NCBI GenBank assembly: GCA_963754875.1
Contig: CAVWHO010000001.1
Coordinates: forward strand, 1-64,000
Source of the DNA: Nitrospirota bacterium
GTDB lineage: Bacteria > Nitrospirota > UBA9217
Direction: 5' to 3'
Length of the DNA: 64,000 nt
Both the position numbers and the translations under genes were made by a program. Positions 26,593-42,147 of the stretch are shown piece by piece; within the stretch, counting starts at the first letter, position 1, and every line of letters starts with the position of its first letter. Below the pieces are notes generated by a model. It did not search any database. It was not told the origin of the DNA and was given only the letters and a program-made list of their open reading frames with translations.

Positions 26593-27075
26593 ATGCAAAA
26601 ACTTCGCAGACTGACCCAGGGACTTTTCCTCCTTTTCTTTTTCTTTTTGTTCATCCAGACCGAGTCCAGGGGAGCTGACTCGCTCGGCTATCCCGTGCGC
26701 CTGTTCCTCGATTTTGCCCCGCTCATCTTCATCACAACAATCCTGTTCGCCCATGCCGCAGCCAAAGCTTTTTATTTTTCCCTCATCACCATTGTCATCA
26801 CGCTCGCCTTCAGCAGGGTCTTCTGCGGATGGGCGGCCGTGCATTATGTGCGAGGAAGTCTGTCCTACGCCGAAGAAGGCCATCTGGACCGAACAAGTCC
26901 GGGTGAGCGACCGTCAGGGGAAGAGCGTGCTTCTCCAGCAGCCGCATGTGGACCTCGACTGTGCATCGACTGCGGCATCTGTGAGAACAAGTGCCCCGTT
27001 CTCGGCAGGCCGGCGATCTCCGTATCGAGCGTGGGGAAGAGCAGGTCGAAGGAGAACCAGTTGTTGCTGACGTGA
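26593..27075 (+). pseudogene. Internally deleted NapH/MauM-like membrane 4Fe-4S protein
   Basis: N-terminus ending RVFCGW is joined out of frame (about 26832) to PCIMCEEVCPTPKKAI; a second shift near 26960 precedes CIDCGICENKCP. Confidence 0.75.
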
Positions 27076-29939: not shown

Positions 29940-30560
29940 ATGCCTCTCTGGATTGTCGCCATTCAATGGCTCTCCCGCTCGGTCCTGGGACTGCTTTTGG
30001 TGTTGTCCGTATGGTCCGTTGCCACCATGCTGCGCTGTTCCCGGCTTCTCCAAAAGGCGGACGGCTTGCCGAAGGAGTCTCCCGGGGAAATGGAAAAAGT
30101 CAGCACGTGGGTCGAAACGCGTCAATGGGACCTTTTGCGCGAGTGGGCCTCAAAGGGAGAAACCCTTCACGCAGGCACAGCGCGTACGATTTTCAGCACC
30201 TCGTCCGACGATTCGTCCCGGGTTGATCGGGCCGTCAGAAGCTACCTGAGTCTCGAACGATCCCGCCTGGAGCAGGGGCTAACGGTACTGGCCACGCTGG
30301 GATCGAACGCCCCCTTTATCGGTCTGTTCGGGACCGTGCTCGGGATCATCCAGGCGTTTGCAGCCCTGGGAGCCCACCAAAACAATGCATCGGACATCAT
30401 GGTGGGAATATCGGAGGCACTCATTGCGACCGCAATCGGGCTCTTTGTGGCCATTCCTGCTGTTATCGCGTTCAACGTCTTTACGAGGAAACTCAAGGTC
30501 CTGCTCGTGCGGTCGGAAGCGCTCAAGGACCTCTATCTTTCCAAGATCGAGAGGAGCTGA
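29940..30560 (+). CDS. exbB: MotA/TolQ/ExbB proton channel protein
   Basis: [39 protein letters not shown]. Confidence 0.9.
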
Positions 30561-30566
30561 CCTGCC

Positions 30567-30983
30567 GTGGCATCCGATCCCTTTTCTTCAAGCGACGACG
30601 ACAGCGCACCGATTTCCGTCATCAACGTGACCCCCTTCGTGGATGTGGTCCTGGTGCTGCTCGTTATCTTCATGATCACCGCCCCGTTCCTGATGCAGGA
30701 CAGCTTCGGCATTCACCTTCCCAAAGCATCGAGCGCCGATAAGTCAATCGCCCCTAAGCTGGGAGTGGCGGTGACCCGGCAGGGACAGATCCTGCTCAAC
30801 GGGATGCTCGTATCTCCCGAGCAGGTCGCCTCGCAGGTCAGGCAGGCGCTGGCTGCGAATCCCGATACACAGGCCCTTATCAGCGCCGATGCCGATGCCA
30901 GGCACGGCGATGTCGTGAAAGCGATCGACCTGGTCAAAACCGCGGGGATGACTCACTTTGCAATCCAGATTGAAAAACAATAA
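30567..30983 (+). CDS. exbD: ExbD/TolR protein
   Basis: INVTPFVDVVLVLLVIFMITAP, ISADAD..HGDVV. Confidence 0.9.
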   Translation: MASDPFSSSDDDSAPISVINVTPFVDVVLVLLVIFMITAPFLMQDSFGIHLPKASSADKSIAPKLGVAVTRQGQILLNGMLVSPEQVASQVRQALAANPDTQALISADADARHGDVVKAIDLVKTAGMTHFAIQIEKQ

Positions 30984-31602
30984 TCTTGTCTACCTCGACC
31001 ATCCCTGGGTCGTCTCCTCCCTGCTTCACGGCGTCCTGATTGCTGCGGTATTCGTCGTGCTGTTTATTTCCCAGTACAAACGGGTCCGTGATGTGGATAT
31101 CGAGATTTACGAAGCCCCCGTGCAAGCGCCGCAGCCGGTCCGGCTCGCTGCGCCGAAGAAAGAAGAGAAACCGCGGGCACACGAGGTCTTCGGCATCACC
31201 CCCAAGTCCGTTGCTTCTGACCAGGGAGAAACAGTGAAGGCGGGCAACACGGTTGCCAAGGCCCCGGACCAGGAACAGCTGAGGCCCGGAGACCCGGATG
31301 CGCTGCCCATACCGAGCGAAGATTACCTCGTTACCAACATGCCTGCGCTCCTGTCGGAAGTTCGGATTCCCTATCCCCGTGAATCCAAAAAGAAGGGAAT
31401 CCAGGGCGCTGTTGTCATGGACCTTCTGATCGATGCTACCGGGAAAGTCCGCGAAGCTACTCTTGTCGAAGGCCCCAACCAGGAGCTCAGCGCTGCTGCG
31501 CTTGCCGCGGCAAAGGGGTTCCGGTTCACTGCGGCACTGATCCAGGACAAACCGGTGGCGGTCCGGATACGGTATCTCTACCGCTTTGTGCTGGAGCGGT
31601 GA
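30970..31602 (+). CDS. tonB: Energy transducer TonB
   Basis: TM anchor SLLH, Pro/Lys-rich linker, YPRES..GIQGAV..IDATGKV C-terminal domain. Confidence 0.88.
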   Translation: MKNNNLVYLDHPWVVSSLLHGVLIAAVFVVLFISQYKRVRDVDIEIYEAPVQAPQPVRLAAPKKEEKPRAHEVFGITPKSVASDQGETVKAGNTVAKAPDQEQLRPGDPDALPIPSEDYLVTNMPALLSEVRIPYPRESKKKGIQGAVVMDLLIDATGKVREATLVEGPNQELSAAALAAAKGFRFTAALIQDKPVAVRIRYLYRFVLER

Positions 31603-31779
31603 GTGAGGTCCACAATGAGTAATTAAAGAATTCGTAAAAAGCCGATAATCGCCGAAGACCGTCATTACCCGCTCCTTGTAAAAAAAATGATGCGGGACTC
31701 TGCCGGCTTGCCCCGCTTGCAGGGCTTGTCCGGAATCGTATCTTGTCCTCACGTACCCTATAAATCTCCTCCATCATTA

Positions 31780-31808
31780 TTGACATAGCTTTGAATCCGG
31801 CATATAGT
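31780..31808 (+). promoter_or_regulatory. Near-consensus sigma70 promoter, candidate Pc of the cassette array
   Basis: TTGACA-N17-TATAGT pointing into the array. Confidence 0.75.
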
Positions 31809-31829
31809 CGTGGAAATAAATCGAGAAAA

Positions 31830-31957
31830 GCATATATCTGTAGATGCTTTATGACGGTTACAAAATTGACTAAAGCATCTACCTGTATATACAAAGTCGG
31901 CATCTACAGGTAGATACATGCATATACCCGTAGATGCTTGCATCTATAAATAGATAC
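31830..31957. repeat. Five 18-bp imperfect palindromic boxes (consensus GCATCTAC-NN-GTAGATRC)
   Basis: Copies start at 31830, 31875, 31900, 31920 and 31940. Confidence 0.9.
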
Positions 31958-31964
31958 CTATTTT

Positions 31965-31989
31965 CGTTTCTATAATATCTTTGTTATCT
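31965..31989 (+). other. Putative attI-like recombination site
   Basis: AT-rich CTATAATATCTTT then GTTATCT at 31983; GTTATC is complementary to GATAAC of the first attC. Confidence 0.55.
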
Positions 31990-32021
31990 ACTACTTGCTG
32001 GCAGATCAGCGGAGTCTATAA

Positions 32022-32438
32022 ATGCTCGGAATAAAAAGACCACGATTCAAGTCAAAGAGAGATGCTTTTCGAACCTTCTCTTCACATTTTTCAGCACCGT
32101 GGTTTATCGTGATACTTGGCGTTGCCGGTGTCGGTAAGACGCGTAGTGCCGAACTCGTTTCATACGAACAGGCAAAGCAATCCATTTATTTTATAATTAT
32201 TGCGGCTCTGCTCTCACTTCCTTATTGGTGGTACAAAGCGTTTTGGGCGGTTTCCGCAATAATGAAAGACGACTATACCAATGAACCAGAAACAGTGATT
32301 TGCTTACACTGTCAGACACCGTTCCCATTTACTAAAGTTAAAAGCTTCCAGTGCCCAAAGTGCAAGGGCGTGCTAGAGAATCTGGACGGTTTCTATGAAA
32401 GACATTCTGAGCTAATGAAAGAGGAACCGAAGAAGTAA
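32022..32438 (+). CDS. Cassette 1: membrane protein with C-terminal zinc ribbon
   Basis: Two hydrophobic segments, CLHC...CPKC; lower GC; followed by an attC. Confidence 0.75.
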   Translation: MLGIKRPRFKSKRDAFRTFSSHFSAPWFIVILGVAGVGKTRSAELVSYEQAKQSIYFIIIAALLSLPYWWYKAFWAVSAIMKDDYTNEPETVICLHCQTPFPFTKVKSFQCPKCKGVLENLDGFYERHSELMKEEPKK

Positions 32439-32447
32439 ACGAAGAAA

Positions 32448-32501
32448 TGATAACGAGCGGGTCGAGTGAGTCGCGAAAAGCACGCTCCTCACCCGCGCGT
32501 T
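32448..32501 (+). other. attC site 1 (interrupted at its GTT by IS1182; continues at 34311)
   Basis: TGATAAC, GCGGGT(C)GAG pairing with CTCACCCGC with one extrahelical base, then GTT. Confidence 0.8.
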
Positions 32502-34310
32502 GAACCTGTAGAAAAAGTCATTTTATGCTATAATAGCGCCATCAAAACGCATTAACGAATCACCAAAACCCCTCACCCACGGGAGGCGTATGGCGAGATA
32601 CAAGGAATATGATTATTCCCAAAGCAAATTGATTCCCATCAGCTTCGACAAACAAATCCTCCCAAATACTTTCGAGCATACTCTTCATTATCTCATCGAC
32701 AACGAAATCGAGCTCTCGGTATTCGACGTTCGCTACAAAAACGATGAAACCGGTGCCCCAGCCTACGATCCCCGTGTTCTTTTAAAGATCGTCCTGTACG
32801 CCTATTCCAAGGGGATCACCTCCAGCCGAAAAATAGCCGACTGCTGCAACGATAACGTCATCTTCATGGCCCTCTCCGCCGACACCCGGCCTCACTTCAC
32901 GACCATCGCCGACTTCATATCATCCCAGGACCAGCAAACGATGAAACTCTTCCTCGAAGTGCTGCTCATCTGCGACGAGATGGGCTTGATCGGAAAAGAA
33001 ATGTTCGCTGTGGACGGCTGCAAGCTTCCCTCCAACGCCTCAAAGGAGTGGAGTGGCACCAAAGGAGAACTTACACATAAAAAAGAGAAGATGGAGAAGG
33101 CCATCCGGGAGATGATAGCGAAACACAAGGAAAGAGACAAAGCCGAAACCGACAAGGCGGTTGTAGAGAAGGAAGAGCAGTACATAAGCACCCTTAAAAC
33201 AAAGATCAAAAAGATCAAGACCTGGCTCGCGGAGAATGACGATAAGCCCGGCAGTAAGGGAAAACCGAGAAAGAGCAACATAACCGACAACGAAAGCGCG
33301 AACATGAAAACCTCGCACGGCGTCATCCAAGGCTACAACGGGGTAGCCATGGTAGACAGCAAGCATCAAATCGTGGTCCACGCAGAGGCGACCGGAGATT
33401 CCGAATCCGCAATACTGAAACCCATGGTCGAAGGAACCCGGGAGAATTTCCAGGAGATCGGAAAAGAAGAAGACATCTTCAAAAAGACCAAACTGACCAC
33501 CGACAGCGGCTTCCACTCCGAAAAGAACGTGGAGATGGTAATTCAGGATGGCATCGACGCATACATCGCCGACAACAAGTTCCGCCAGCGCGATCCCCGC
33601 TTTGCCGACGCCGACAAGTATAAGGAGAGGTTCAAGAAAGAACGGGCCAAACGATCAGGTGTACCCAGCATTTATCAATCTAAAGACTTTACGGTAAGTC
33701 CGGATAAAAACTACTGCATCTGTCCTGGCGGCAAGCGTATGTACCGGGACGGCGGCAATGTGCTCATCAACGGAATGCGATTCATCAAGTTCCGGGGAAG
33801 CAAGATGAACTGTGTTCCGTGCGGACTTCGAGCAAAATGCATGAAGAATCCCGAACGAACGGTTACCCGCCAGTTCGCCTACTATACTGGGCAGAACGAA
33901 CAGCAGACCAAGACCTTCACGCAGAAAATGCGGGAGAAGATAGACTCGGTAGCCGGTAAACTCATCTACGGTAGGAGAATGGCGACAGTCGAGCCTGTCT
34001 TTGCCAATGTTCGGAGCAGTCTTGGCTTGGATCGCTTCAGTCTCAGAGGGAAAAAGAAGGTGAGCGTCCAGTGGCGGCTCTACTGCACGGTTCACAATCT
34101 ATTAAAGGTGCATCGATACGGATTTGGTTTTGCAAGTACTTGAGGTAAGGCGAAGCCGAAAGGGAAATAGAATGAAGTAGCAAGCACTAATCAGGTCATC
34201 TGAACCGATAAATCAGCAGAATCAAAAAATCTTCCCCACGCCAGGAGCCACATAGGATCATATAACGGGGAGCAGACAAGCTTTTGCAAATGGGCTTTTT
34301 CTACAGACTC
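32502..34310 (+). mobile_element. IS1182-family insertion sequence
   Basis: Ends GAACCTGTAGAAAAAGTCATTT / AAATGGGCTTTTTCTACAGACTC; GTT on both sides. Confidence 0.9.
32590..34143 (+). CDS. IS1182-family transposase
   Basis: GAPAYDPR..YAY..SSRKI, PHFTTIADF, VDGCKL, TDNES..GYN, DSGF, RRMATVEPVF, HNLLK. Confidence 0.93.
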   Translation: MARYKEYDYSQSKLIPISFDKQILPNTFEHTLHYLIDNEIELSVFDVRYKNDETGAPAYDPRVLLKIVLYAYSKGITSSRKIADCCNDNVIFMALSADTRPHFTTIADFISSQDQQTMKLFLEVLLICDEMGLIGKEMFAVDGCKLPSNASKEWSGTKGELTHKKEKMEKAIREMIAKHKERDKAETDKAVVEKEEQYISTLKTKIKKIKTWLAENDDKPGSKGKPRKSNITDNESANMKTSHGVIQGYNGVAMVDSKHQIVVHAEATGDSESAILKPMVEGTRENFQEIGKEEDIFKKTKLTTDSGFHSEKNVEMVIQDGIDAYIADNKFRQRDPRFADADKYKERFKKERAKRSGVPSIYQSKDFTVSPDKNYCICPGGKRMYRDGGNVLINGMRFIKFRGSKMNCVPCGLRAKCMKNPERTVTRQFAYYTGQNEQQTKTFTQKMREKIDSVAGKLIYGRRMATVEPVFANVRSSLGLDRFSLRGKKKVSVQWRLYCTVHNLLKVHRYGFGFAST

Positions 34311-34340
34311 GTTGTATCTTCAAGTGCTGAGGCAAAATCT

Positions 34341-34991
34341 ATGGTTTTAGACATCCAAAATCGAACCGAAAACTGGGGAACGGTTAATAAGCTCTATGGC
34401 CCCATCGCGCCTGAAGTCCTAGGATCAGTAATGAAGGCATTGGGGCAGCCACCGGGCACACTAGCGGATATCGAGCTCTTTTGGCGAGGGTATCGTGACC
34501 ATTGCTACGATCAGGAAATTACGGCCCGTACGGTAAATTTCCCGTGCCTGCTCGACCGATTCCGGAGGTTATTTCCAAACCTTAGGGCTAAAGTGAAAAG
34601 TTTTGCTGACACTAACAACGGCTCCATTCGACTTAATGATCCTTGTAACTATAGGGCAGAAGAACAAGACGGAACTGCCCTATTCGAAAATGTTCGAAAC
34701 ACGGAGTTCGACATAGTCATAGAAACAGAGAATGAGCTATTCATAGGTGAAGTAAAGCAGACACAGACATTTGGAGCGAAGGGTACTTTGGTCTTGCCTC
34801 ACCAACTTTTAAGACAGTATGTGACCGCGTCCATTCTTTTAGATGAGCGTAGGGTATCAAAGCGAATAATACCGTTCGTTGTTGAAGAAAAAAATGGCGC
34901 GAATAAAAACGGACAAGTGCGACTCATGGAATATCTCGGCTATCTTCAACAAGGACATGTGTTCCAGTGGAAGCAACTAATTAAAACATGA
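34341..34991 (+). CDS. Cassette 2: hypothetical protein with a PD-(D/E)xK-like motif
   Basis: TEFDIVIE...IGEVK...HQLLRQ. Confidence 0.6.
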   Translation: MVLDIQNRTENWGTVNKLYGPIAPEVLGSVMKALGQPPGTLADIELFWRGYRDHCYDQEITARTVNFPCLLDRFRRLFPNLRAKVKSFADTNNGSIRLNDPCNYRAEEQDGTALFENVRNTEFDIVIETENELFIGEVKQTQTFGAKGTLVLPHQLLRQYVTASILLDERRVSKRIIPFVVEEKNGANKNGQVRLMEYLGYLQQGHVFQWKQLIKT

Positions 34992-34999
34992 TGTAAATT

Positions 35000-35053
35000 G
35001 TCTAACCAGCCCGTACCGCCGCGAGGAGCGCGCGGCTTACGCGTGAGTTGTAT
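35000..35053 (+). other. attC site 2 (degenerate)
   Basis: GTCTAAC...GCGCGGCTTACGCGTGA GTTGTAT with an imperfect stem, 9 bp after the stop codon. Confidence 0.65.
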
Positions 35054-35159
35054 TTAAAATGACGGCCCAATGGAAGAGAAACAAATTGAGGCAAAACAGA
35101 ATCAGATGGATCATTCCAGGCCTTACTGTCTCAGATGATATTTAACAATGGCAGACTGT

Positions 35160-36487
35160 CACTAGTGTCCCAACGTTACAGCAATAGATTCAATTGGTTA
35201 TCGCCGTCAATGGTATCGGTTTCGTAATTTGGTGAAGAAAGCACCTGCAAAATGGGCGTTTTCTCGAATGTGGTCACACTCAAAATTTGTAGAATTGTGT
35301 AAAGGCTCCGATCCAGTTTCAATCGCTTCTTGACAATGGCCACGAGAACGTATACGGAAATGGCGATCCATATTTGGGTCTTCAGCGCGTTCTCGCTGGT
35401 GCCATAAAACGCTTTGATCCGCAGGTGCTGTTTGATCCACTTGAAGAAAAGCTCTACCTGCCAGCGGCATTTGTACAGTTTCGCGATCACGATTGCTGGC
35501 AGCGTGAAGTTGTTGGTCAGAAAAACGAATCGCTTCTTTGTTTCGACATCGAAGTATCGGATTCGCCTGAATTTCTCGGGATAGTCCAGCAGCGTGTAGA
35601 ACCCGGTGACCATAATGATTTGGTCTGCACGTACTCCGGTTGACTTGTCTACTGGCCGGGAATAGAGGCGCTTGAAAACGAAATTGCTCTTTGCGCGCGT
35701 TACGAAGAACGCGAGCGATTGATGAATCCCATAAAGCCGGGCGAAATCGACATATGCCTTGTCGAAAATATAGATGGCTCCAGGCTCGAAGACAAGATCG
35801 TCGAGCGCGTTGACATCGTGCATTTTGCCGTTGGTAATACTGATCACAACGGGGATGTTGCCCCGGAGATCCAACAGCGTATGAAGTTTTACCGCGGCTT
35901 TGGTTTTGCGAAACTTGGCCCAGGGAAATACCGAGAGACAGAGATCGATGGTCGTTGAATCGAAGGCGTAAACGGCTTGCTTCAATTCCAAACCGAAGTC
36001 TTCGTTTGTGTATAGTTCTCTGGCGATCTTGATCAGCACTTGGGCGAAATCGGCGTAGATTCTCCAGTCTCGGTTCTCGTTGGCATGGGCTAGATTGTTT
36101 CGTGAGACGGTGCTCCGGATGCCCATGTGATACAACTTCGGCTTCGCCACGCGAAGGCAGGCTTCTATGTCCCTGAGGCTTTCTCGATACGTAAGCTGGG
36201 CGAAGGCCATGCAAAGGAACTGATCCAGACAGGTAAACGTTTTCACCTTGTAGTTGCCGTTGTAACGATCGACACACAGGTGAAAGTGAAACGATGGAGC
36301 AAAATCCATGATTTGAGCAAAAACGGTTCTGCCAATGTTCACGATGAGCCATCTCCTTCCGCGGGTTAGCGGAATTATGGCCTATCGGCAGAAATAATTT
36401 CAAATCGAAAAGTTGCGTTTGGGAAGAAACCGTCATGTTTTTCTATCTGTTAGGCGATGTTCTCAATTCAACGTTGGGACACTAGTG
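35160..36487 (-). mobile_element. IS4-family insertion sequence
   Basis: Perfect 18-bp IR CACTAGTGTCCCAACGTT; 9-bp target duplication GCAGACTGT (35151-35159, 36488-36496). Confidence 0.95.
35176..36342 (-). CDS. IS4-family DDE transposase
   Basis: FAQLTYRESLRDI, FDSTTI, VKLH, FDKAY, YKCRWQVELFFKWIKQ. Confidence 0.95.
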   Translation of the reverse strand: MNIGRTVFAQIMDFAPSFHFHLCVDRYNGNYKVKTFTCLDQFLCMAFAQLTYRESLRDIEACLRVAKPKLYHMGIRSTVSRNNLAHANENRDWRIYADFAQVLIKIARELYTNEDFGLELKQAVYAFDSTTIDLCLSVFPWAKFRKTKAAVKLHTLLDLRGNIPVVISITNGKMHDVNALDDLVFEPGAIYIFDKAYVDFARLYGIHQSLAFFVTRAKSNFVFKRLYSRPVDKSTGVRADQIIMVTGFYTLLDYPEKFRRIRYFDVETKKRFVFLTNNFTLPAIVIAKLYKCRWQVELFFKWIKQHLRIKAFYGTSENALKTQIWIAISVYVLVAIVKKRLKLDRSLYTILQILSVTTFEKTPILQVLSSPNYETDTIDGDNQLNLLL

Positions 36488-36496
36488 GCAGACTGT

Positions 36497-36874
36497 ATGA
36501 ATAAATTAAATTTTCATCGAATAGTGAAATGGTTTTTAGTCGTCAATGTGGCGTTTACCCTGATTTCAAAAGCACGAATGTTAGGTATTTATTTTTCTTG
36601 GCGTTCTGATGTGTACAGCTACGCTATGGTATCGTTATTTTTCTTAGGTTGCCTTGGCAGCATAGTTGGTTTGTCACTCAATAAGTTCTGGGGTTTTATT
36701 TGTTTTTATGTCTTAATTCCGTTTGCAATATATTATCTCGGCATCTCCATAACTCCACTTGATAGGTTTTTCCCGTACCCTTCAAAAATAACAGCAATCT
36801 ATTTATTAAACGCAGTTCTCATTGCCTTCGCCAGTTGGCTTCAGATCGCACAGTGGAGAATAAAGAAAGCGTAA
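36497..36874 (+). CDS. Cassette 3: small multi-TM membrane protein (original start probably ATG 35148, displaced by IS4)
   Basis: AT-rich hydrophobic ORF; removing IS4 restores MADCMNKLNF; followed by an attC. Confidence 0.7.
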   Translation: MNKLNFHRIVKWFLVVNVAFTLISKARMLGIYFSWRSDVYSYAMVSLFFLGCLGSIVGLSLNKFWGFICFYVLIPFAIYYLGISITPLDRFFPYPSKITAIYLLNAVLIAFASWLQIAQWRIKKA

Positions 36875-36875
36875 A

Positions 36876-36934
36876 TAACAACATGCGGCTCGACTGCGAC
36901 GCGCCAACGGCGGCGCGTCAGCCGCGCGTTGGGC
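36876..36934 (+). other. attC site 3
   Basis: TAACAAC, GCGGCT(C)GAC / GTCAGCCGC stem, GTTGGGC. Confidence 0.88.
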
Positions 36935-37004
36935 GGTAGCGAAATCTCGGCGTGGCCATCGTGTGCAGAACGCTCGCTCGACTGCAGGCAGAGGAAAATA
37001 ACGA

Positions 37005-37562
37005 ATGACGAATGACGATCGCACCAAGGTAATTCCGAGGAGAACGCCGGAATCAGCGGCCATGTTGGCAAGCGTCAAACGAGCTATGGCGATCACCGCT
37101 AATCTCAACCGTTTGACGTTCAACGATGCGGATGAAGTCCGAGCCTTGTTCAGCGATCTCATCGGCAAGAAGGTGGACGACAGCTTTTTATTAATCCCAC
37201 CATTCTACACAACCGGCGGGGTCGATATCAGTGTCGGGCGCAATGTTTTCGTCAATCAGAACTGCACTTTTTATGACCTTGGCGGGCTCGATATTGCCGA
37301 CGATGTGATGATCGGGCCGAACGTAAGCATCATCACGTCTGGCCATCCCATCGAACCTTCTCAGCGGCGTGCCTTGGTAGTCGCAAAGCCCATCGTGATT
37401 GAAAGAAACGTATGGATTGCAGCCGGCGTAACTATCATCGGTGGCGTAACAGTGGGCGAGAACTCGGTCGTTGCAGCCGGCTCAGTCGTCACCAAGGATG
37501 TCCCTCCAAATACGCTCGTCGGGGGAAATCCGGCGAAAGTCATTCGCTCGATTGGAGACTGA
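37005..37562 (+). CDS. Cassette 4: sugar O-acetyltransferase (Maa/LacA hexapeptide-repeat family)
   Basis: PPFYT, GRNVFVN, IGPNV, NVWIAAGV, GSVVTKDVP, GGNPAK. Confidence 0.92.
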   Translation: MTNDDRTKVIPRRTPESAAMLASVKRAMAITANLNRLTFNDADEVRALFSDLIGKKVDDSFLLIPPFYTTGGVDISVGRNVFVNQNCTFYDLGGLDIADDVMIGPNVSIITSGHPIEPSQRRALVVAKPIVIERNVWIAAGVTIIGGVTVGENSVVAAGSVVTKDVPPNTLVGGNPAKVIRSIGD

Positions 37563-37574
37563 GGAAATGGGGCC

Positions 37575-37647
37575 GCCCAACAATTCGCTGCAGCCGACCG
37601 CCTACTCGCTGGCGCTCGCAGCCGGCGGTTGAGCTTAAGCGTTATGC
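37575..37647 (+). other. attC site 4
   Basis: CCGCCCAAC is the exact reverse complement of the cassette start GTTGGGCGG (36928); internal stem; ends GTTATGC. Confidence 0.92.
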
Positions 37648-37678: not shown

Positions 37679-38483
37679 ATGACACAGATTAAAACTCCTT
37701 TGGACGTATACAAGTTACTCCCAAAATCTAATTGTAAGCAATGCTCACTTCCGTCATGTTTGGCTTTTTCTGCAGCCGTATTAAGCGGTGAAAAGCAACT
37801 TGCGGATTGCCCGCATATCGCCGGTAGTATCGTCGGTGAGACAAATAAAATAGATATACATAAATCTACACTTCAAAAAAGAGAGGAAGCCGCCGACTCA
37901 GCTCAGAAGTCAAATCCCTTCGATAGATTTACTTACATCTGCTCAGAAGCTCGGCGCTAAAATTATTGGTGAAAAATTAGCCATTAAATGTCTCGGCAAA
38001 GATTTCTTTATAGATTCAACGGGGAATATTACATCTGAATGCCACACTCACGCCTGGATAACGCTCTTATTACTTGATCATATTATAAGCAGTAAGGGTG
38101 ATAATCCGTCCGGCCAATGGATTCCATTCAGAGAATTAAAGAAAGGAGCGGAGCGGAATCCTCTTTTTGAGCAACTGTGCGAAAAACCTCTCAAAGAGAT
38201 GGCCGACACCCATACGGCTCTTTTTGAAGATCTCATTTATATTTTTAGCGGAGATAGATCGACAAATATGTTTTCATCAGATATATCACTAGTTTTGTAT
38301 CCATTACCCAAAGTACCTATCTTAATTTGCTACTGGAAAGCAGAAGGCGCAATGGAAGCATCCCTTCACATCTTCTTCGATTCAACAGTTGGGAATCATT
38401 TAAATCTTCAGGCAATCTTTGATCTCGGCGTTGGTTTGTCAATGATGTTCGAGAAGGTGGTTTTTAAGCACAAACGTAATTGA
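37679..38483 (+). CDS. Fe-S cluster domain + DUF3786-like protein, frameshift near 37890
   Basis: LPKSNCKQCSLPSCLAF..DCP; a second frame continues IDLLTSAQKLGA..CLGKDF..YPLPKVPILICYW. Confidence 0.75.
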
Positions 38484-38507
38484 AATGCGAAATAGAACAA
38501 AAAGTGC

Positions 38508-38538
38508 GTAGGTCGGGTAGAGCGCAGCGAAACCCGAC
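38508..38538 (+). repeat. REP 1 (GTAG family)
   Basis: GTAG-GTCGGGT-AGAGCGCAGCGAA-ACCCGAC. Confidence 0.92.
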
Positions 38539-38572
38539 ACAATGCCAATGATTGCTCAACACAAGAGGAATC

Positions 38573-39115
38573 ATGCAATACAAAAGATCAATAGCGAAGG
38601 GAGCAACATTCTTCTTTACGATTGTGACGCACGAACGACGTAAAATCCTGTGTCATGAATCAAATGTAGCTTTATTGGGAGAAGCTTTCCAAACTGTCAA
38701 GGTGCGTCACCCGTTTACCATTGATGCTTTTGTGTTGATGCCCGATCATCTGCACTGCATATGGACCTTGCCGGAAAATGACAGCAACTTCTCAATGCGC
38801 TGGCGCCAGATCAAGAGCCATTTCAGCAGGAAATGCCGGGATGAATTTAAGGGGCGTCAAACGGCAGCCCATCTCGGTAAAGGTGAACAAGCGATCTGGC
38901 AAAGGCGTTACTGGGAACATCAGATTCGAGATGATGGTGATTTTATCAATCACGTTGAATACATTCATTACAATCCTGTAAAACACGGGTTAACAAAATC
39001 ACCTAAACTTTGGCCGCATTCGTCCTTCTATCGCTTTGTGAAACAGGGGATTTACCATAACGATTGGGGTGCGGACGCCGAGATTGTATTCAAACGTCAT
39101 GTAGGGAATGAATAA
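38573..39115 (+). CDS. REP-associated tyrosine transposase (RAYT/TnpA-REP)
   Basis: FFTIVT, MPDHLHCIW (HUH), IWQRRYWEHQIRD, YIHYNPVKHG, WPHSSF; flanked by inverted REPs. Confidence 0.93.
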   Translation: MQYKRSIAKGATFFFTIVTHERRKILCHESNVALLGEAFQTVKVRHPFTIDAFVLMPDHLHCIWTLPENDSNFSMRWRQIKSHFSRKCRDEFKGRQTAAHLGKGEQAIWQRRYWEHQIRDDGDFINHVEYIHYNPVKHGLTKSPKLWPHSSFYRFVKQGIYHNDWGADAEIVFKRHVGNE

Positions 39116-39123
39116 ATGAAGAT

Positions 39124-39154
39124 GTCGGGTTTCGCTGCGCTCTACCCGACCTAC
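39124..39154 (-). repeat. REP 2 (inverted)
   Basis: Exact reverse complement of REP 1. Confidence 0.92.
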
Positions 39155-39182
39155 CGACTGAAAAGGAAGGCATAAATATCCT

Positions 39183-39602
39183 ATGAATCCATCGAAACGT
39201 ATTGACCAACTGATCACAGAACTCACAGACTGGCGTGGCAAAACGTTCGCCAGCATCCGCAAGAGCATCCTCGAGGCCGACCGGGAGATAATCGAGGAAT
39301 GGAAGTGGATGGGAAGCCCAGTGTGGTCTCACGACGGAATAATCGCGGTCGCCAACGCCCACAAAGAGAAGGTGAAGCTTACCTTTGCCCGCGGGGCGAG
39401 CCTCCCAGATCCTGACAAGCTCTTCAACGCGGGCCTCGAAGGCAACGCGAGACGAGCGATCGATTTTTACGAGGGCGATAAGATTAATGAGCGTGCTCTA
39501 AAAAATCTCGTCCGTGCCGCTGTTGATTACAATCGTGCCAAATTGAAGAAGAAAGCGCCTGCGGGTACTCGAGCGAAAGTTCACAAAAGTAAAAAGACAT
39601 GA
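39183..39602 (+). CDS. DUF1801 (YdhG-like) protein
   Basis: DWRG..IR..I, EEWKWMGSPVW, VKLTFARGASLPDP..FN..RRAID. Confidence 0.85.
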   Translation: MNPSKRIDQLITELTDWRGKTFASIRKSILEADREIIEEWKWMGSPVWSHDGIIAVANAHKEKVKLTFARGASLPDPDKLFNAGLEGNARRAIDFYEGDKINERALKNLVRAAVDYNRAKLKKKAPAGTRAKVHKSKKT

Positions 39603-39607
39603 AGTTA

Positions 39608-39717
39608 GTAGGTCGGGTAGAACGTTTTTTGTGAAACCCGACGCTTGCATGCTTGAATATTTACAACAGTAAGGAACAGAAACAATGTCGGGTTTCGCTC
39701 TGCTCTACCCGACCTAC
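39608..39717. repeat. REP doublet (REPIN): REP 3 at 39608-39642 and inverted REP 4 at 39687-39717
   Basis: GTAGGTCGGGTAGA...AAACCCGAC and GTCGGGTTTCG...CTACCCGACCTAC. Confidence 0.9.
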
Positions 39718-39759
39718 CGAATTTCTAAGCTCCCATCCTGTTTCGAAAAAAGGGCTCTC

Positions 39760-42147
39760 ATGAAACGAAGAAAACTAAGCAGCACTCCCTCGGCAAGAGG
39801 AAAAGCTTTTCAGATCGTTATCCTCTCGTTTCTTCTGTCATTTCTGACAAGCAGTTTTACTTTTGCGGAAGAGCCTCCCGCGTTGTTGTCCGCGCCGGTT
39901 CCTACTCCTGCTCAGATTCAAGCTCCTGTTGAACTGCCAACAGTAAAAATCGAAGGCACGCTTTGGGAGCGGGGGACGAAGAAGCCGCTGTCCCAGGTCA
40001 ATATCTACTGCTTTCCCGAATCAAGTCCGGAAAAGCCGATCAAGATCGTGACCAACAAAACCGGAAAATTTTCAGCCGAAATTCCTGAAGGTAAATTCCG
40101 TTGGGTCATCTCGGTCTCCGGGTACCAGCGGCTGGAACAGAATGATGAACAGCTCTTGGGAAGGGATAACAAGGCCCGGACATTCTACCTGGAAAAAGTA
40201 TCCTACCTCACCTACGAAACCACGGTGTACGGCCGGACCGAGAAGCGGGATGACAAAACCGAATCGCTCAGCCAGGCCCAGTTCCTCACGGTCCCGGGAG
40301 CGAACGGCGACCCGGTAAAGGCGGTCCAGAACCTGCCCGGAGTGAATCGCACGTCGGCGTTCAGTTCCCAGATCATCATCGAAGGGTCTTCCCCGAACGA
40401 TACGCGATACAATATCGACAACCAGCCTGTGCCGATCATTTTTCATTTCGGCGGGCTTTCGTCGGTGGTCATGCCCGAAGCAGTGGATCATGTTGACTAT
40501 CTTTCCGCGGGGTTCGGTCCCGAGTTCGGCCAGACCATTGCCGGCCTCGTGAATCTCACGGTAAAAGACCCGCAGACAGACCGGGACCACGGCTTCGTGT
40601 ATGCGGATTTCATGAATGCCGGCGGGATGATCGAGGGGCCCCTGAACGATCACTCTTCCTATCTCGTCGGCGTGCGGCAAAGCTACATCGGTGCGGTCTT
40701 GGGCGTCGTTGCCCGGAGCAGCAAAGACAATAAGAACTTCGAGCTCACCGCGGCCCCGGACTTCAAGGACACGGTCCTGGAATATAAAAACCAGGTGAGC
40801 TCGAAGGATACCTTCAAGGTCGTCGGAGTGGGCTCACAGGACACCTTTGCCTTTCTTTTGAAGCAGCCGGCGGATCAAGACCCAAGCATTCGCGGCAATT
40901 TCAATCTTCGCACGGATTTTTTCCGCATCATTCCCGAATGGACCCACCAGTACAGCCCCGACGTTACGGGCCGCATCAGCCTGGGCACGGGAAAGGACAC
41001 GACGGTCTTCGACCTGGGAGACTTCTATGCCCGCTCCGAGCAATTGGTCCTGACCGGGAGAGCCGAGCTCGAAGACCAGATCAACTCCACCTGGAAGAGC
41101 TACTGGGGCGCGGATATCCAGAAATACTGGCTGGACTATACGTACCAGCTTCCCGTCGTGTACAACCAGGGAGGGGTCTCCAATCCCATCGGCTCCGGCA
41201 CGCTCACCAACGTTGCCCGCCGCTATGCGCCTGAAGCCGACGGGCTTTACTGGAGAAACGTGATTCACCCACCCGATTCGCGCTGGACCTTTCTTCCCGG
41301 CGTCCGCTACAGCTATTTCAATATGACGAAAGAATCTATCGTCGAGCCGCGCATCGGTGCGCGGTATGCCCTGGACCACGGCTGGACGCTCCGCGCTGCC
41401 GGCGGTCTCTACAATGAAGCGCCTCCCACCGGGGACCTCGACGCGACCTATGGGAATCCCGGGTTGAAATCGCAGAGAGCGGTGCACGGCAGCGCAGGCT
41501 TTGAAAAGGACTTCCGGGACGGATCGGCCACGGGCTGGACGATCACGAACGATTTCTTTTATAAATATCTCTACGATCTCGTTGCCAGTTCCACGGCATT
41601 TTTGAGTCCGTCGCGGCCTGAGTATTACAACAATTCGGGATTCGGCCATATCTACGGCCTGGAGTTCCTGGGCAAGTTCCGGTCCCTGACCTGGGAAGGC
41701 TGGGTCTCCTATACCTATTCGCGCAGCACGAGAGGGGACAACCTGACGCCGGAGACGCTCGCTCAATACGATCAGACCCATCTGCTCACCCTGGTCGCGG
41801 ACAAGGAGCTCGGCAAGAACTGGAAGATATCCACCCGCATCCGCTACGCGACAGGCAATCTATATACGCCCGTTGTGGGCAGCGTCTTCGACGTGGACAA
41901 CGACGTTTACACCCCGATACGCGGCGATATCTACTCGCAGCGCATGGGCGACTTTTTCCAGGCGGACGTACGGTTCGACAAGAAATGGGTCTACGACAAA
42001 TGGATCCTCACGGGCTACCTCGACATCGAGAACGTAACGAACCGGCAGAACCCGCAGCAGATCAACTATTCGTACAACTACCAGCAGTCGGCGACGGTCA
42101 CGGGACTGCCGCTCTTCCCAACCCTGGGGGTGAAGGCGGAGTTTTGA
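39760..42147 (+). CDS. TonB-dependent outer-membrane receptor with an N-terminal extension domain
   Basis: Signal peptide, plug (GDPVKAVQNLPGV, FHFGG, YLSAGFGPEFG), beta-barrel, ENVTN, terminal Phe. Confidence 0.9.
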   Translation: MKRRKLSSTPSARGKAFQIVILSFLLSFLTSSFTFAEEPPALLSAPVPTPAQIQAPVELPTVKIEGTLWERGTKKPLSQVNIYCFPESSPEKPIKIVTNKTGKFSAEIPEGKFRWVISVSGYQRLEQNDEQLLGRDNKARTFYLEKVSYLTYETTVYGRTEKRDDKTESLSQAQFLTVPGANGDPVKAVQNLPGVNRTSAFSSQIIIEGSSPNDTRYNIDNQPVPIIFHFGGLSSVVMPEAVDHVDYLSAGFGPEFGQTIAGLVNLTVKDPQTDRDHGFVYADFMNAGGMIEGPLNDHSSYLVGVRQSYIGAVLGVVARSSKDNKNFELTAAPDFKDTVLEYKNQVSSKDTFKVVGVGSQDTFAFLLKQPADQDPSIRGNFNLRTDFFRIIPEWTHQYSPDVTGRISLGTGKDTTVFDLGDFYARSEQLVLTGRAELEDQINSTWKSYWGADIQKYWLDYTYQLPVVYNQGGVSNPIGSGTLTNVARRYAPEADGLYWRNVIHPPDSRWTFLPGVRYSYFNMTKESIVEPRIGARYALDHGWTLRAAGGLYNEAPPTGDLDATYGNPGLKSQRAVHGSAGFEKDFRDGSATGWTITNDFFYKYLYDLVASSTAFLSPSRPEYYNNSGFGHIYGLEFLGKFRSLTWEGWVSYTYSRSTRGDNLTPETLAQYDQTHLLTLVADKELGKNWKISTRIRYATGNLYTPVVGSVFDVDNDVYTPIRGDIYSQRMGDFFQADVRFDKKWVYDKWILTGYLDIENVTNRQNPQQINYSYNYQQSATVTGLPLFPTLGVKAEF

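Follow-up and report, generated by a model that had tools for sequence, protein, structure and literature searches.

An integrase-less integron cassette array with an attI-homologous head in a Nitrospirota tonB–receptor operon, probably served by a distant integrase

We analyzed a 64,000-nt stretch of DNA (the window) from a Nitrospirota bacterium of the UBA9217 lineage (assembly GCA_963754875.1, contig CAVWHO010000001.1, positions 1 to 64,000 of the forward strand; contig C1 below), which carries an integron cassette array without an integrase gene (intI). The array lies in a block of ~8.1 kb between exbB-exbD-tonB on the left (29940–31602, + strand; Pfam MotA_ExbB, ExbD, and TonB_C) and a gene for a TonB-dependent receptor on the right (39739–42147, +; assigned by profile match). 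In one relative (G031) tonB and the receptor gene are 16 nt apart, and in another (G008) they are close together; judged by this gene order, the block interrupts a tonB–receptor operon that is contiguous in both. On contig C1 (81 kb) nothing matches the integrase profile TIGR02249, which leaves the array without the adjacent intI of a complete integron. The original prediction had also found no local integrase, which holds, but it placed tonB in the position of intI; tonB is instead the host flank of the interrupted operon.

Four attC sites had been proposed, at 32448, 35000, 36876, and 37575. A covariance model trained on 12 attC sites of the same genome, all outside the window, recovers each of them in a search of the 64 kb with filters off: attC1 (32448–32505, +, 66.4 bits), a degenerate attC2 (35000–35053, +, 21.3 bits, E 0.0015), attC3 (36876–36934, +, 49.2 bits), and attC4 (37575–37647, +, 31.2 bits). 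The search returned seven rows, the other three being two opposite-strand echoes and one row of 11.7 bits. Training sites were chosen via a looser regional scan used for that purpose alone; two hand-made genome-wide attC scans, both of which overlooked the sites in the window, were dropped. Genome-wide, the model gives 26 attC at ~11 places (150 of 1913 candidates scored; 12 of the 26 are the training sites). Bottom-strand folding z-scores for attC1 to attC4 are −3.97, −1.46, −2.74, and −0.92, so energy by itself backs attC1 and attC3 only as clearly better than shuffles. The complementarity described for the cassette ends is present in cassette 1 (GTTATC/GATAAC) and cassette 4 (9/9) and partial in cassette 3, and the mismatch described for cassette 2 is real, persisting with the insertion sequence (IS) disregarded. 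With four attC in one orientation, where at least two are required, and no neighboring intI on contig C1, the array is an attC-site cluster that has no integron integrase (CALIN), as had been proposed.

Cassette 1 encodes a 138-aa protein (32022–32438, +) with no Pfam or NCBIfam match and five homologs at 67–96%. An IS1182-family element follows (32502–34310, +; transposase 32590–34143; NF033551, 280.4 bits against a cut-off of 270), and its end now supplies the final four bases of the attC1 right core. The 216-aa product of cassette 2 (34341–34991, +) belongs to an unnamed family; Atlas comparisons place it with unnamed clusters at 0.94 and with nuclease families at 0.83–0.84, a lead only toward a PD-(D/E)xK nuclease-like protein. 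Cassette 3 encodes a hydrophobic 125-aa protein of no family in Pfam or NCBIfam (36497–36874, +), and an IS4-family element sits in the 5′ end of this reading frame (35160–36487, −; transposase 35176–36342; NF033592, 258.9 bits against a cut-off of 115; 9-bp target duplication). Together the two ISs, overlooked originally, make up almost half of the stretch. Cassette 4 encodes a hexapeptide-repeat O-acetyltransferase of the maltose/galactoside type (37005–37562, +; beneath family cut-offs), which falls far beneath the Vat and CatB cut-offs of NCBIfam and provides no link to drug resistance. A fifth unit, also overlooked, begins at GTT 37641 and lacks its own attC. Past this last GTT lies an FeS and DUF3786 gene in two frames (37679–38483, +), behind which the covariance model finds no attC. 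In a frameshift survey, 7 of 60 conserved loci were in two frames, so assembly error is possible.

The leader of the array begins, as originally described, with a consensus promoter. This candidate Pc is of the sigma70 type (TTGACA-17-TATAGT, 31780–31808, +), fits 11 of 12 consensus positions, and tops 14 consensus matches (shuffles average 10.1 matches). The same motif is dispersed through the genome, with 22 matches against 2 for the reversed pattern. Members of this dispersed promoter family (the window and 21 other places) share TTGAC, 17 nt, and a conserved GCATATA(G/T)T end, and head unrelated genes; an upstream TACCC motif is frequent, and the 3′ end resembles half of one of the palindromic boxes that follow. 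Downstream of the promoter, alignment with the full modules described below identifies the last nine codons and stop of a 115-aa gene (31825–31854, +); no intact copy was found in this genome, which is 90% complete. Five 18-bp palindromic boxes that had been overlooked begin at 31830, 31875, 31900, 31920, and 31940 (31830–31957; spacing 45/25/20/20) and remain near consensus, scoring 22–25 bits with a box matrix. The 23 hits of this matrix across the genome comprise two clusters and scattered single matches, which leaves a box-based genome-wide regulon unsupported. The boxes are followed by an attI-type site (31958–31989, +) with its crossover GTT at 31983–31985. The attI-like GTT noted before is thus present, and the site is homologous to attI sites adjoining intI, with one extra spacer base (AAT-to-GTT spacer of 6 nt; usually 5). 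It scores 17.4 bits when a one-base gap is allowed, a value reached by 14 of 119,330 genome GTT sites, and −5.4 ungapped. The 172 nt upstream of this GTT align to an integron platform model with 103.8 bits.

We compared 141 loci with the 115-aa gene (61 genomic and 80 metagenomic, the latter being the best 80 of 577); its protein family has 1943 representatives at 50% identity. All 55 attC hits at these loci (39 loci) lie downstream in cassette orientation, though the upstream side offered more DNA, and divergent intI sequence lies upstream in 31 of the 141 loci, or 24 of the 74 with at least 2.5 kb upstream. The gene therefore belongs to the integron platform and is no cassette. The full module runs in the order intI, 115-aa gene, five boxes, and attI, with the last codons of the gene overlapping box 1. 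Among 79 distinct modules with at least three boxes, the spacing 45/25/20/20 is commonest (18 exact), and the window fits it. The distance from the last box to the GTT is 24 nt in 51 of these modules, 23 in 8, 26 in 7, 22 in 3, and 25 in 1, and in 9 no GTT was found beyond the last box; this fixed box-to-crossover distance suggests a role of the boxes in the recombination complex. Boxes occur in several sequence types (L081, L085, L096, L151–L185), usually a single type within one module, which co-vary with the C-terminal residues of the small protein because box 1 overlaps those codons. Truncation points cluster just left of box 1, which amid repeat ambiguity and shared descent is suggestive only.

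The 115-aa monomer is modeled with a pLDDT of 94 and a pTM of 0.59, and a whole-chain fold search gives no Foldseek match at E 0.001 (best Z 3.7). Homodimer prediction scores 0.57 against 0.00 for the best control, with contacts via residues 37–54; 20 of 30 solved pairs attain the dimer mark, as does 1 of 23 single chains, and at least 97% of contacts recur between runs, with a pLDDT of at least 82. The predicted homodimer would fit a binder of palindromes. DUF5710 (PF18974) matches residues 78–99 at 24.2 bits, the Pfam cut-off being 26.5, and appears among precomputed hits in some homologs. NCBIfam gives a weak hit in 1 of 65 family members, and no plasmid match was found for one distant homolog.

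The only TIGR02249 match above cut-off in this genome lies on contig C13, where an intact-looking intI adjoins six attC in a complete integron. This integron (C13:77983–83916; L001/L100) encodes a 491-aa IntI whose N-terminal extension contains two SAM_4 stretches; two direct repeats occupy the intI–attI gap, and the first cassettes carry reverse-oriented reading frames. A matrix built from module attI sites scores at least 17 bits beside 13 of 21 family integrases, mostly box-free ones (17.2 for C13), so the attI core is common to module-bearing and module-less integrons. On the IntI tree the module has to appear or disappear four times, and the tree does not set the direction; among the 21 integrases entered as lacking a module, 2 have less than 150 nt upstream.

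Across the family, heads of this kind commonly stand without intI. A pattern combining a box with attI finds 53 sites in 30 of 64 genomes and 3 sites when reversed; it misses both sites of the present genome (the window and one on contig C16). Where at least 3 kb of upstream sequence is available, intI lies upstream at 2 of 43 sites and is absent from 41, and the same 43 sites have a full small gene in 15 cases, part of it in 6, and none in 22. Around the pattern sites 62 attC hits lie downstream and 1 upstream, after 6 of 69 rows were dropped (four rows from own-genome loci and two opposite-strand echoes); where the downstream sequence extends for at least 1.5 kb, an attC is present at 35 of 43 sites. 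The order of promoter, boxes, and attI recurs beside other host genes in G130, G231, and G242, giving four genomes of three genera in all. In this family, docks are thus mostly orphans, with several per genome at unrelated host genes. The second dock of this genome follows radA (C16:290589–290701, −; L241), with three boxes of another sequence type and a regularly spaced attI that has the top matrix score of the genome (25.4 bits), followed by cassettes and a downstream attC. At two further places (C16:449600–449711, −, and C10:234792–234910, +) this promoter motif precedes an inverted repeat and a head with a G-run; both heads resemble a second attI type, found beside intI in L312/L313, and lie a few kilobases ahead of attC, but their own cores are irregular.

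Orthologous loci carry footprints of cassette exchange at these docks. Ten bases past the stop codon at the RNase J locus, G066 and G214 have one box and attI in common; the two are 90% identical to 4 nt beyond the crossover G, diverge from there, and become alike again 1.8 and 1.3 kb further on. Orphan sites follow radA in four genomes of three genera (the C16 dock, G214, G220, and G120), and their first cassettes are unrelated. The tonB locus itself is occupied differently in G003, where flanks of 83–88% identity enclose ~12.6 kb of different DNA with two attC. There, a 38-nt remnant of the box region of the window is followed by an attI arm of which 84 nt are identical to the attI of the complete integron on another contig of G003, the identity ending at the GTT. 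Gene content at the tonB locus is accordingly not fixed among relatives, and neither outcome named beforehand as speaking against an integron array, failure of the sites under an attC model or an invariant gene order, was found.

We therefore favor, with a probability of roughly two in three, a reading in which the window holds an integrase-less array in the tonB–receptor operon whose attI-homologous head and five boxes have been filled and reshuffled by a distant IntI. The retained insertion platform of the original prediction is backed by the homology of the leader to attI of complete integrons. Together with the orphan docks, the cassette differences, and the attI copy in G003, this homology makes loading in trans likely, as read from comparative footprints. 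That this particular copy still recombines has about even odds, its core spacer being one base longer than usual. Mechanistically, intergenic sites may acquire attI arms that are copied or transferred from complete integrons, sometimes along with the small gene and sometimes not; as a candidate route suggested by attG chemistry, an attC and a secondary site to the left of attI could recombine to excise the arm, which would then reinsert elsewhere. A distant IntI would then recombine incoming attC with these intergenic attI-type sites, and the candidate promoter would transcribe cassette 1. The boxes presumably bind a dimeric protein. The 115-aa product, where present, would be the leading candidate at a little below even odds, ahead of IntI itself, in the manner of DR1/DR2, and then of a host factor; since boxes persist without the gene, as here, the latter two stay in play. 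A more elaborate version, which we hold tentatively and rate below an even chance, is a hub-and-satellite arrangement in which one integrase serves several promoter-equipped attI docks scattered along the chromosome, the docks multiply by attI-arm copying, and the 115-aa dimer on the boxes is a dedicated, integron-encoded accessory factor for cassette capture.

Several observations weigh against loading by a distant integrase. Degenerate attC2, two ISs, and the frameshifted gene are signs of decay. The 6-nt core spacer places the last box 25 nt from the GTT, as in 1 of the 79 modules, one that adjoins intI; this additional base may leave the copy inactive or reflect an error of assembly. Among sequencing runs, the best DNA match is 0.23 and no RNA run is listed, and the contigs compared include no listed piece or indel across the attI spacer. 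Recombination between non-cognate IntI and attI is reported to be generally inefficient in the text available from PMC8946536, and both the boxes and the small gene are missing from the C13 integron. Among the 30 genomes with pattern sites, 13 show no intI (E 1e-40), several of them 97–100% complete, and the share of genomes with intI is not clearly higher where pattern sites occur (17 of 30 genomes) than where they do not (15 of 34), so a large number of docks are probably stranded at present. Among the 53 pattern sites, 2 look like chance, one pair is a duplicate, and the genomes are related metagenome-assembled genomes. Different first cassettes can also arise by differential excision, which itself needs an integrase in trans.

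The strongest alternative, which we nonetheless consider unlikely, is a dead relic: a complete module-type integron that took up its cassettes on the spot, later shed intI along with most of the small gene, and has received no insertion since. The gene stub, the extra base, and the decay signs above match it, as do the pattern-site genomes without intI; truncated intI adjoins the module in several loci, and CALINs are usually ascribed to integrase loss in the accessible text of bioRxiv 10.1101/2022.09.11.507474. Local loss sits poorly, however, with the absence of any intI trace here and at 41 of 43 sites, with shared intI-less junctions at which different cassettes begin at the crossover, with the exact and recent attI copy at the orthologous G003 site, and with boxes in the window that are still near consensus. 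Much less probable is that the block arrived ready-made via an IS, a miniature inverted-repeat transposable element (MITE), or recombination, and serves for expression only, its boxes being operators of cassette transcription. The recurrence of promoter, boxes, and attI at different host genes would suit such a unit, as would the repeats and ISs that flank the block here and in G003 and the position of the boxes between promoter and first cassette; yet the constant last box-to-crossover distance links the boxes with the geometry of recombination and not with the promoter, and cassette differences begin at the GTT. Founding of the array by attC × attG at an ordinary genomic GTT, with promoter and attI looking coincidental, is hardly credible even though such insertion has been demonstrated by experiment and put forward as an origin of small CALINs (in the text available from bioRxiv 10.1101/2022.09.11.507474) and the ungapped attI score is −5.4, since the 103.8-bit platform alignment, which makes the first site one related to attI, and the five boxes in conserved spacing largely refute it.

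The IS1182-family element behaves as a passenger of cassettes. It has a transposase above the family cut-off, terminal inverted repeats, and a short target duplication, and is inserted at the attC1 GTT, which it duplicated; as a GTT core remains on either side, the IS would be carried along with cassette 2. Across 22 loci of 13 other genomes, all 12 distinct left ends printed come after GTT (8 at a model-detected attC end, 4 after attC-like stems judged by eye), and GTT is next to 14 of 16 distinct right ends. Insertion at attC GTT is a habit of this IS1182 lineage. Two plasmid records were matched at 43%. One array in G006 (C38:137829–149903; L189, L200, L204) has three copies, two in tandem at one GTT, and short elements sharing the IS1182 ends also occur (L196, L208; joint 32516–34288). 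The IS1111-attC group and group IIC-attC introns are mobile elements that home to attC; the window element differs in being an IS1182-family DDE transposon with GTT duplicated and a GTT core on both sides, and Pfam and NCBIfam matches of the element return DDE IS1182 and no IS110-type (DEDD, IS1111-attC group) family. A reverse transcriptase reading frame at C10 ~237000–238380 (L103:7400–8380) terminates within an attC half, as would fit a group IIC-attC intron, and a similar junction precedes an IS1182 end in L198.

Repeats border the block on both sides. Just upstream of the boxes, the window retains, in truncated form, the left portion of a palindromic repeat (MITE/REP-like, 31630–31744) that is dispersed in the genome, with 77–89% matches at three other places; it is related to a MITE-like palindromic repeat found inside a box in G003 (L014:8700–8820) and in two G019 docks (L251, L252; L210). 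The right edge of the island is formed by an overlooked block (38503–39724, +) of REP repeats flanking the gene of a REP-associated tyrosine transposase (RAYT, 38552–39115), together with a DUF1801 gene (39183–39602); G003 shares REP copies at that flank. Elsewhere in the window, a 4Fe-4S membrane gene (26593–27075) has a large internal deletion relative to its 525-aa ortholog in G003. The single Rfam match (mir-10, E 0.29) lies beneath the gathering score and was taken as chance.

The window array is, judged from its sites, a CALIN by definition that would function in the way a complete integron's platform does, without being a complete integron. It shares with CALINs as defined by Cury et al. 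2016 (available text, PMC4889954) at least two attC without neighboring intI, but differs in its attI-homologous head and candidate promoter. With complete sedentary integrons it shares the attI core, cassette polarity, and, as a candidate, the promoter, its attI being of the type found in C13 and other family integrons, whereas intI is absent in cis and several docks per genome lie at unrelated host genes. The boxes recall DR1/DR2 of attI1, repeats at a fixed distance upstream of the core that plausibly shape the synapse and that favor attI1 × attC (as described in the accessible part of PMC8946536), but they are five palindromes rather than two direct repeats, and the first overlaps the end of a dedicated small gene. 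As in the attG insertion proposed for SALINs and small CALINs (available text, bioRxiv 10.1101/2022.09.11.507474), an integrase would act away from its own locus, but here the target is attI-homologous and not an unrelated genomic site. The idea of trans action itself is not new, having been raised as a possibility for IntI on CALINs (in the available portions of PMC9668308 and bioRxiv 10.1101/2025.06.18.660453). Among the open-access papers listed in literature searches, we found no description of attI-headed multi-copy CALINs, of the gene-box module, or of an attC-targeting IS1182; the present analysis adds a count of orphan docks across the family, comparisons between orthologous sites, and the finding of an exact attI copy in G003.

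Both the origin and the activity of CALINs, which are common, are described as open questions in the text available from PMC4889954 and bioRxiv 10.1101/2022.09.11.507474. IntegronFinder, according to the accessible text of PMC4889954, matches attI for classes 1–3 alone and by exact pattern, so heads like that of the window would go unreported. The attI motif described here finds attI beyond current tools; the analysis also yields a candidate accessory protein and a cassette-riding IS lineage. In this family, many CALINs, several to a genome, are headed by a definable attI motif and bear footprints of cassette exchange at the crossover and of recent attI copying, so both the sites and the integrase for a direct test of trans loading can be named. 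If the hub-and-satellite arrangement is true, many CALINs would be active insertion sites rather than relics.

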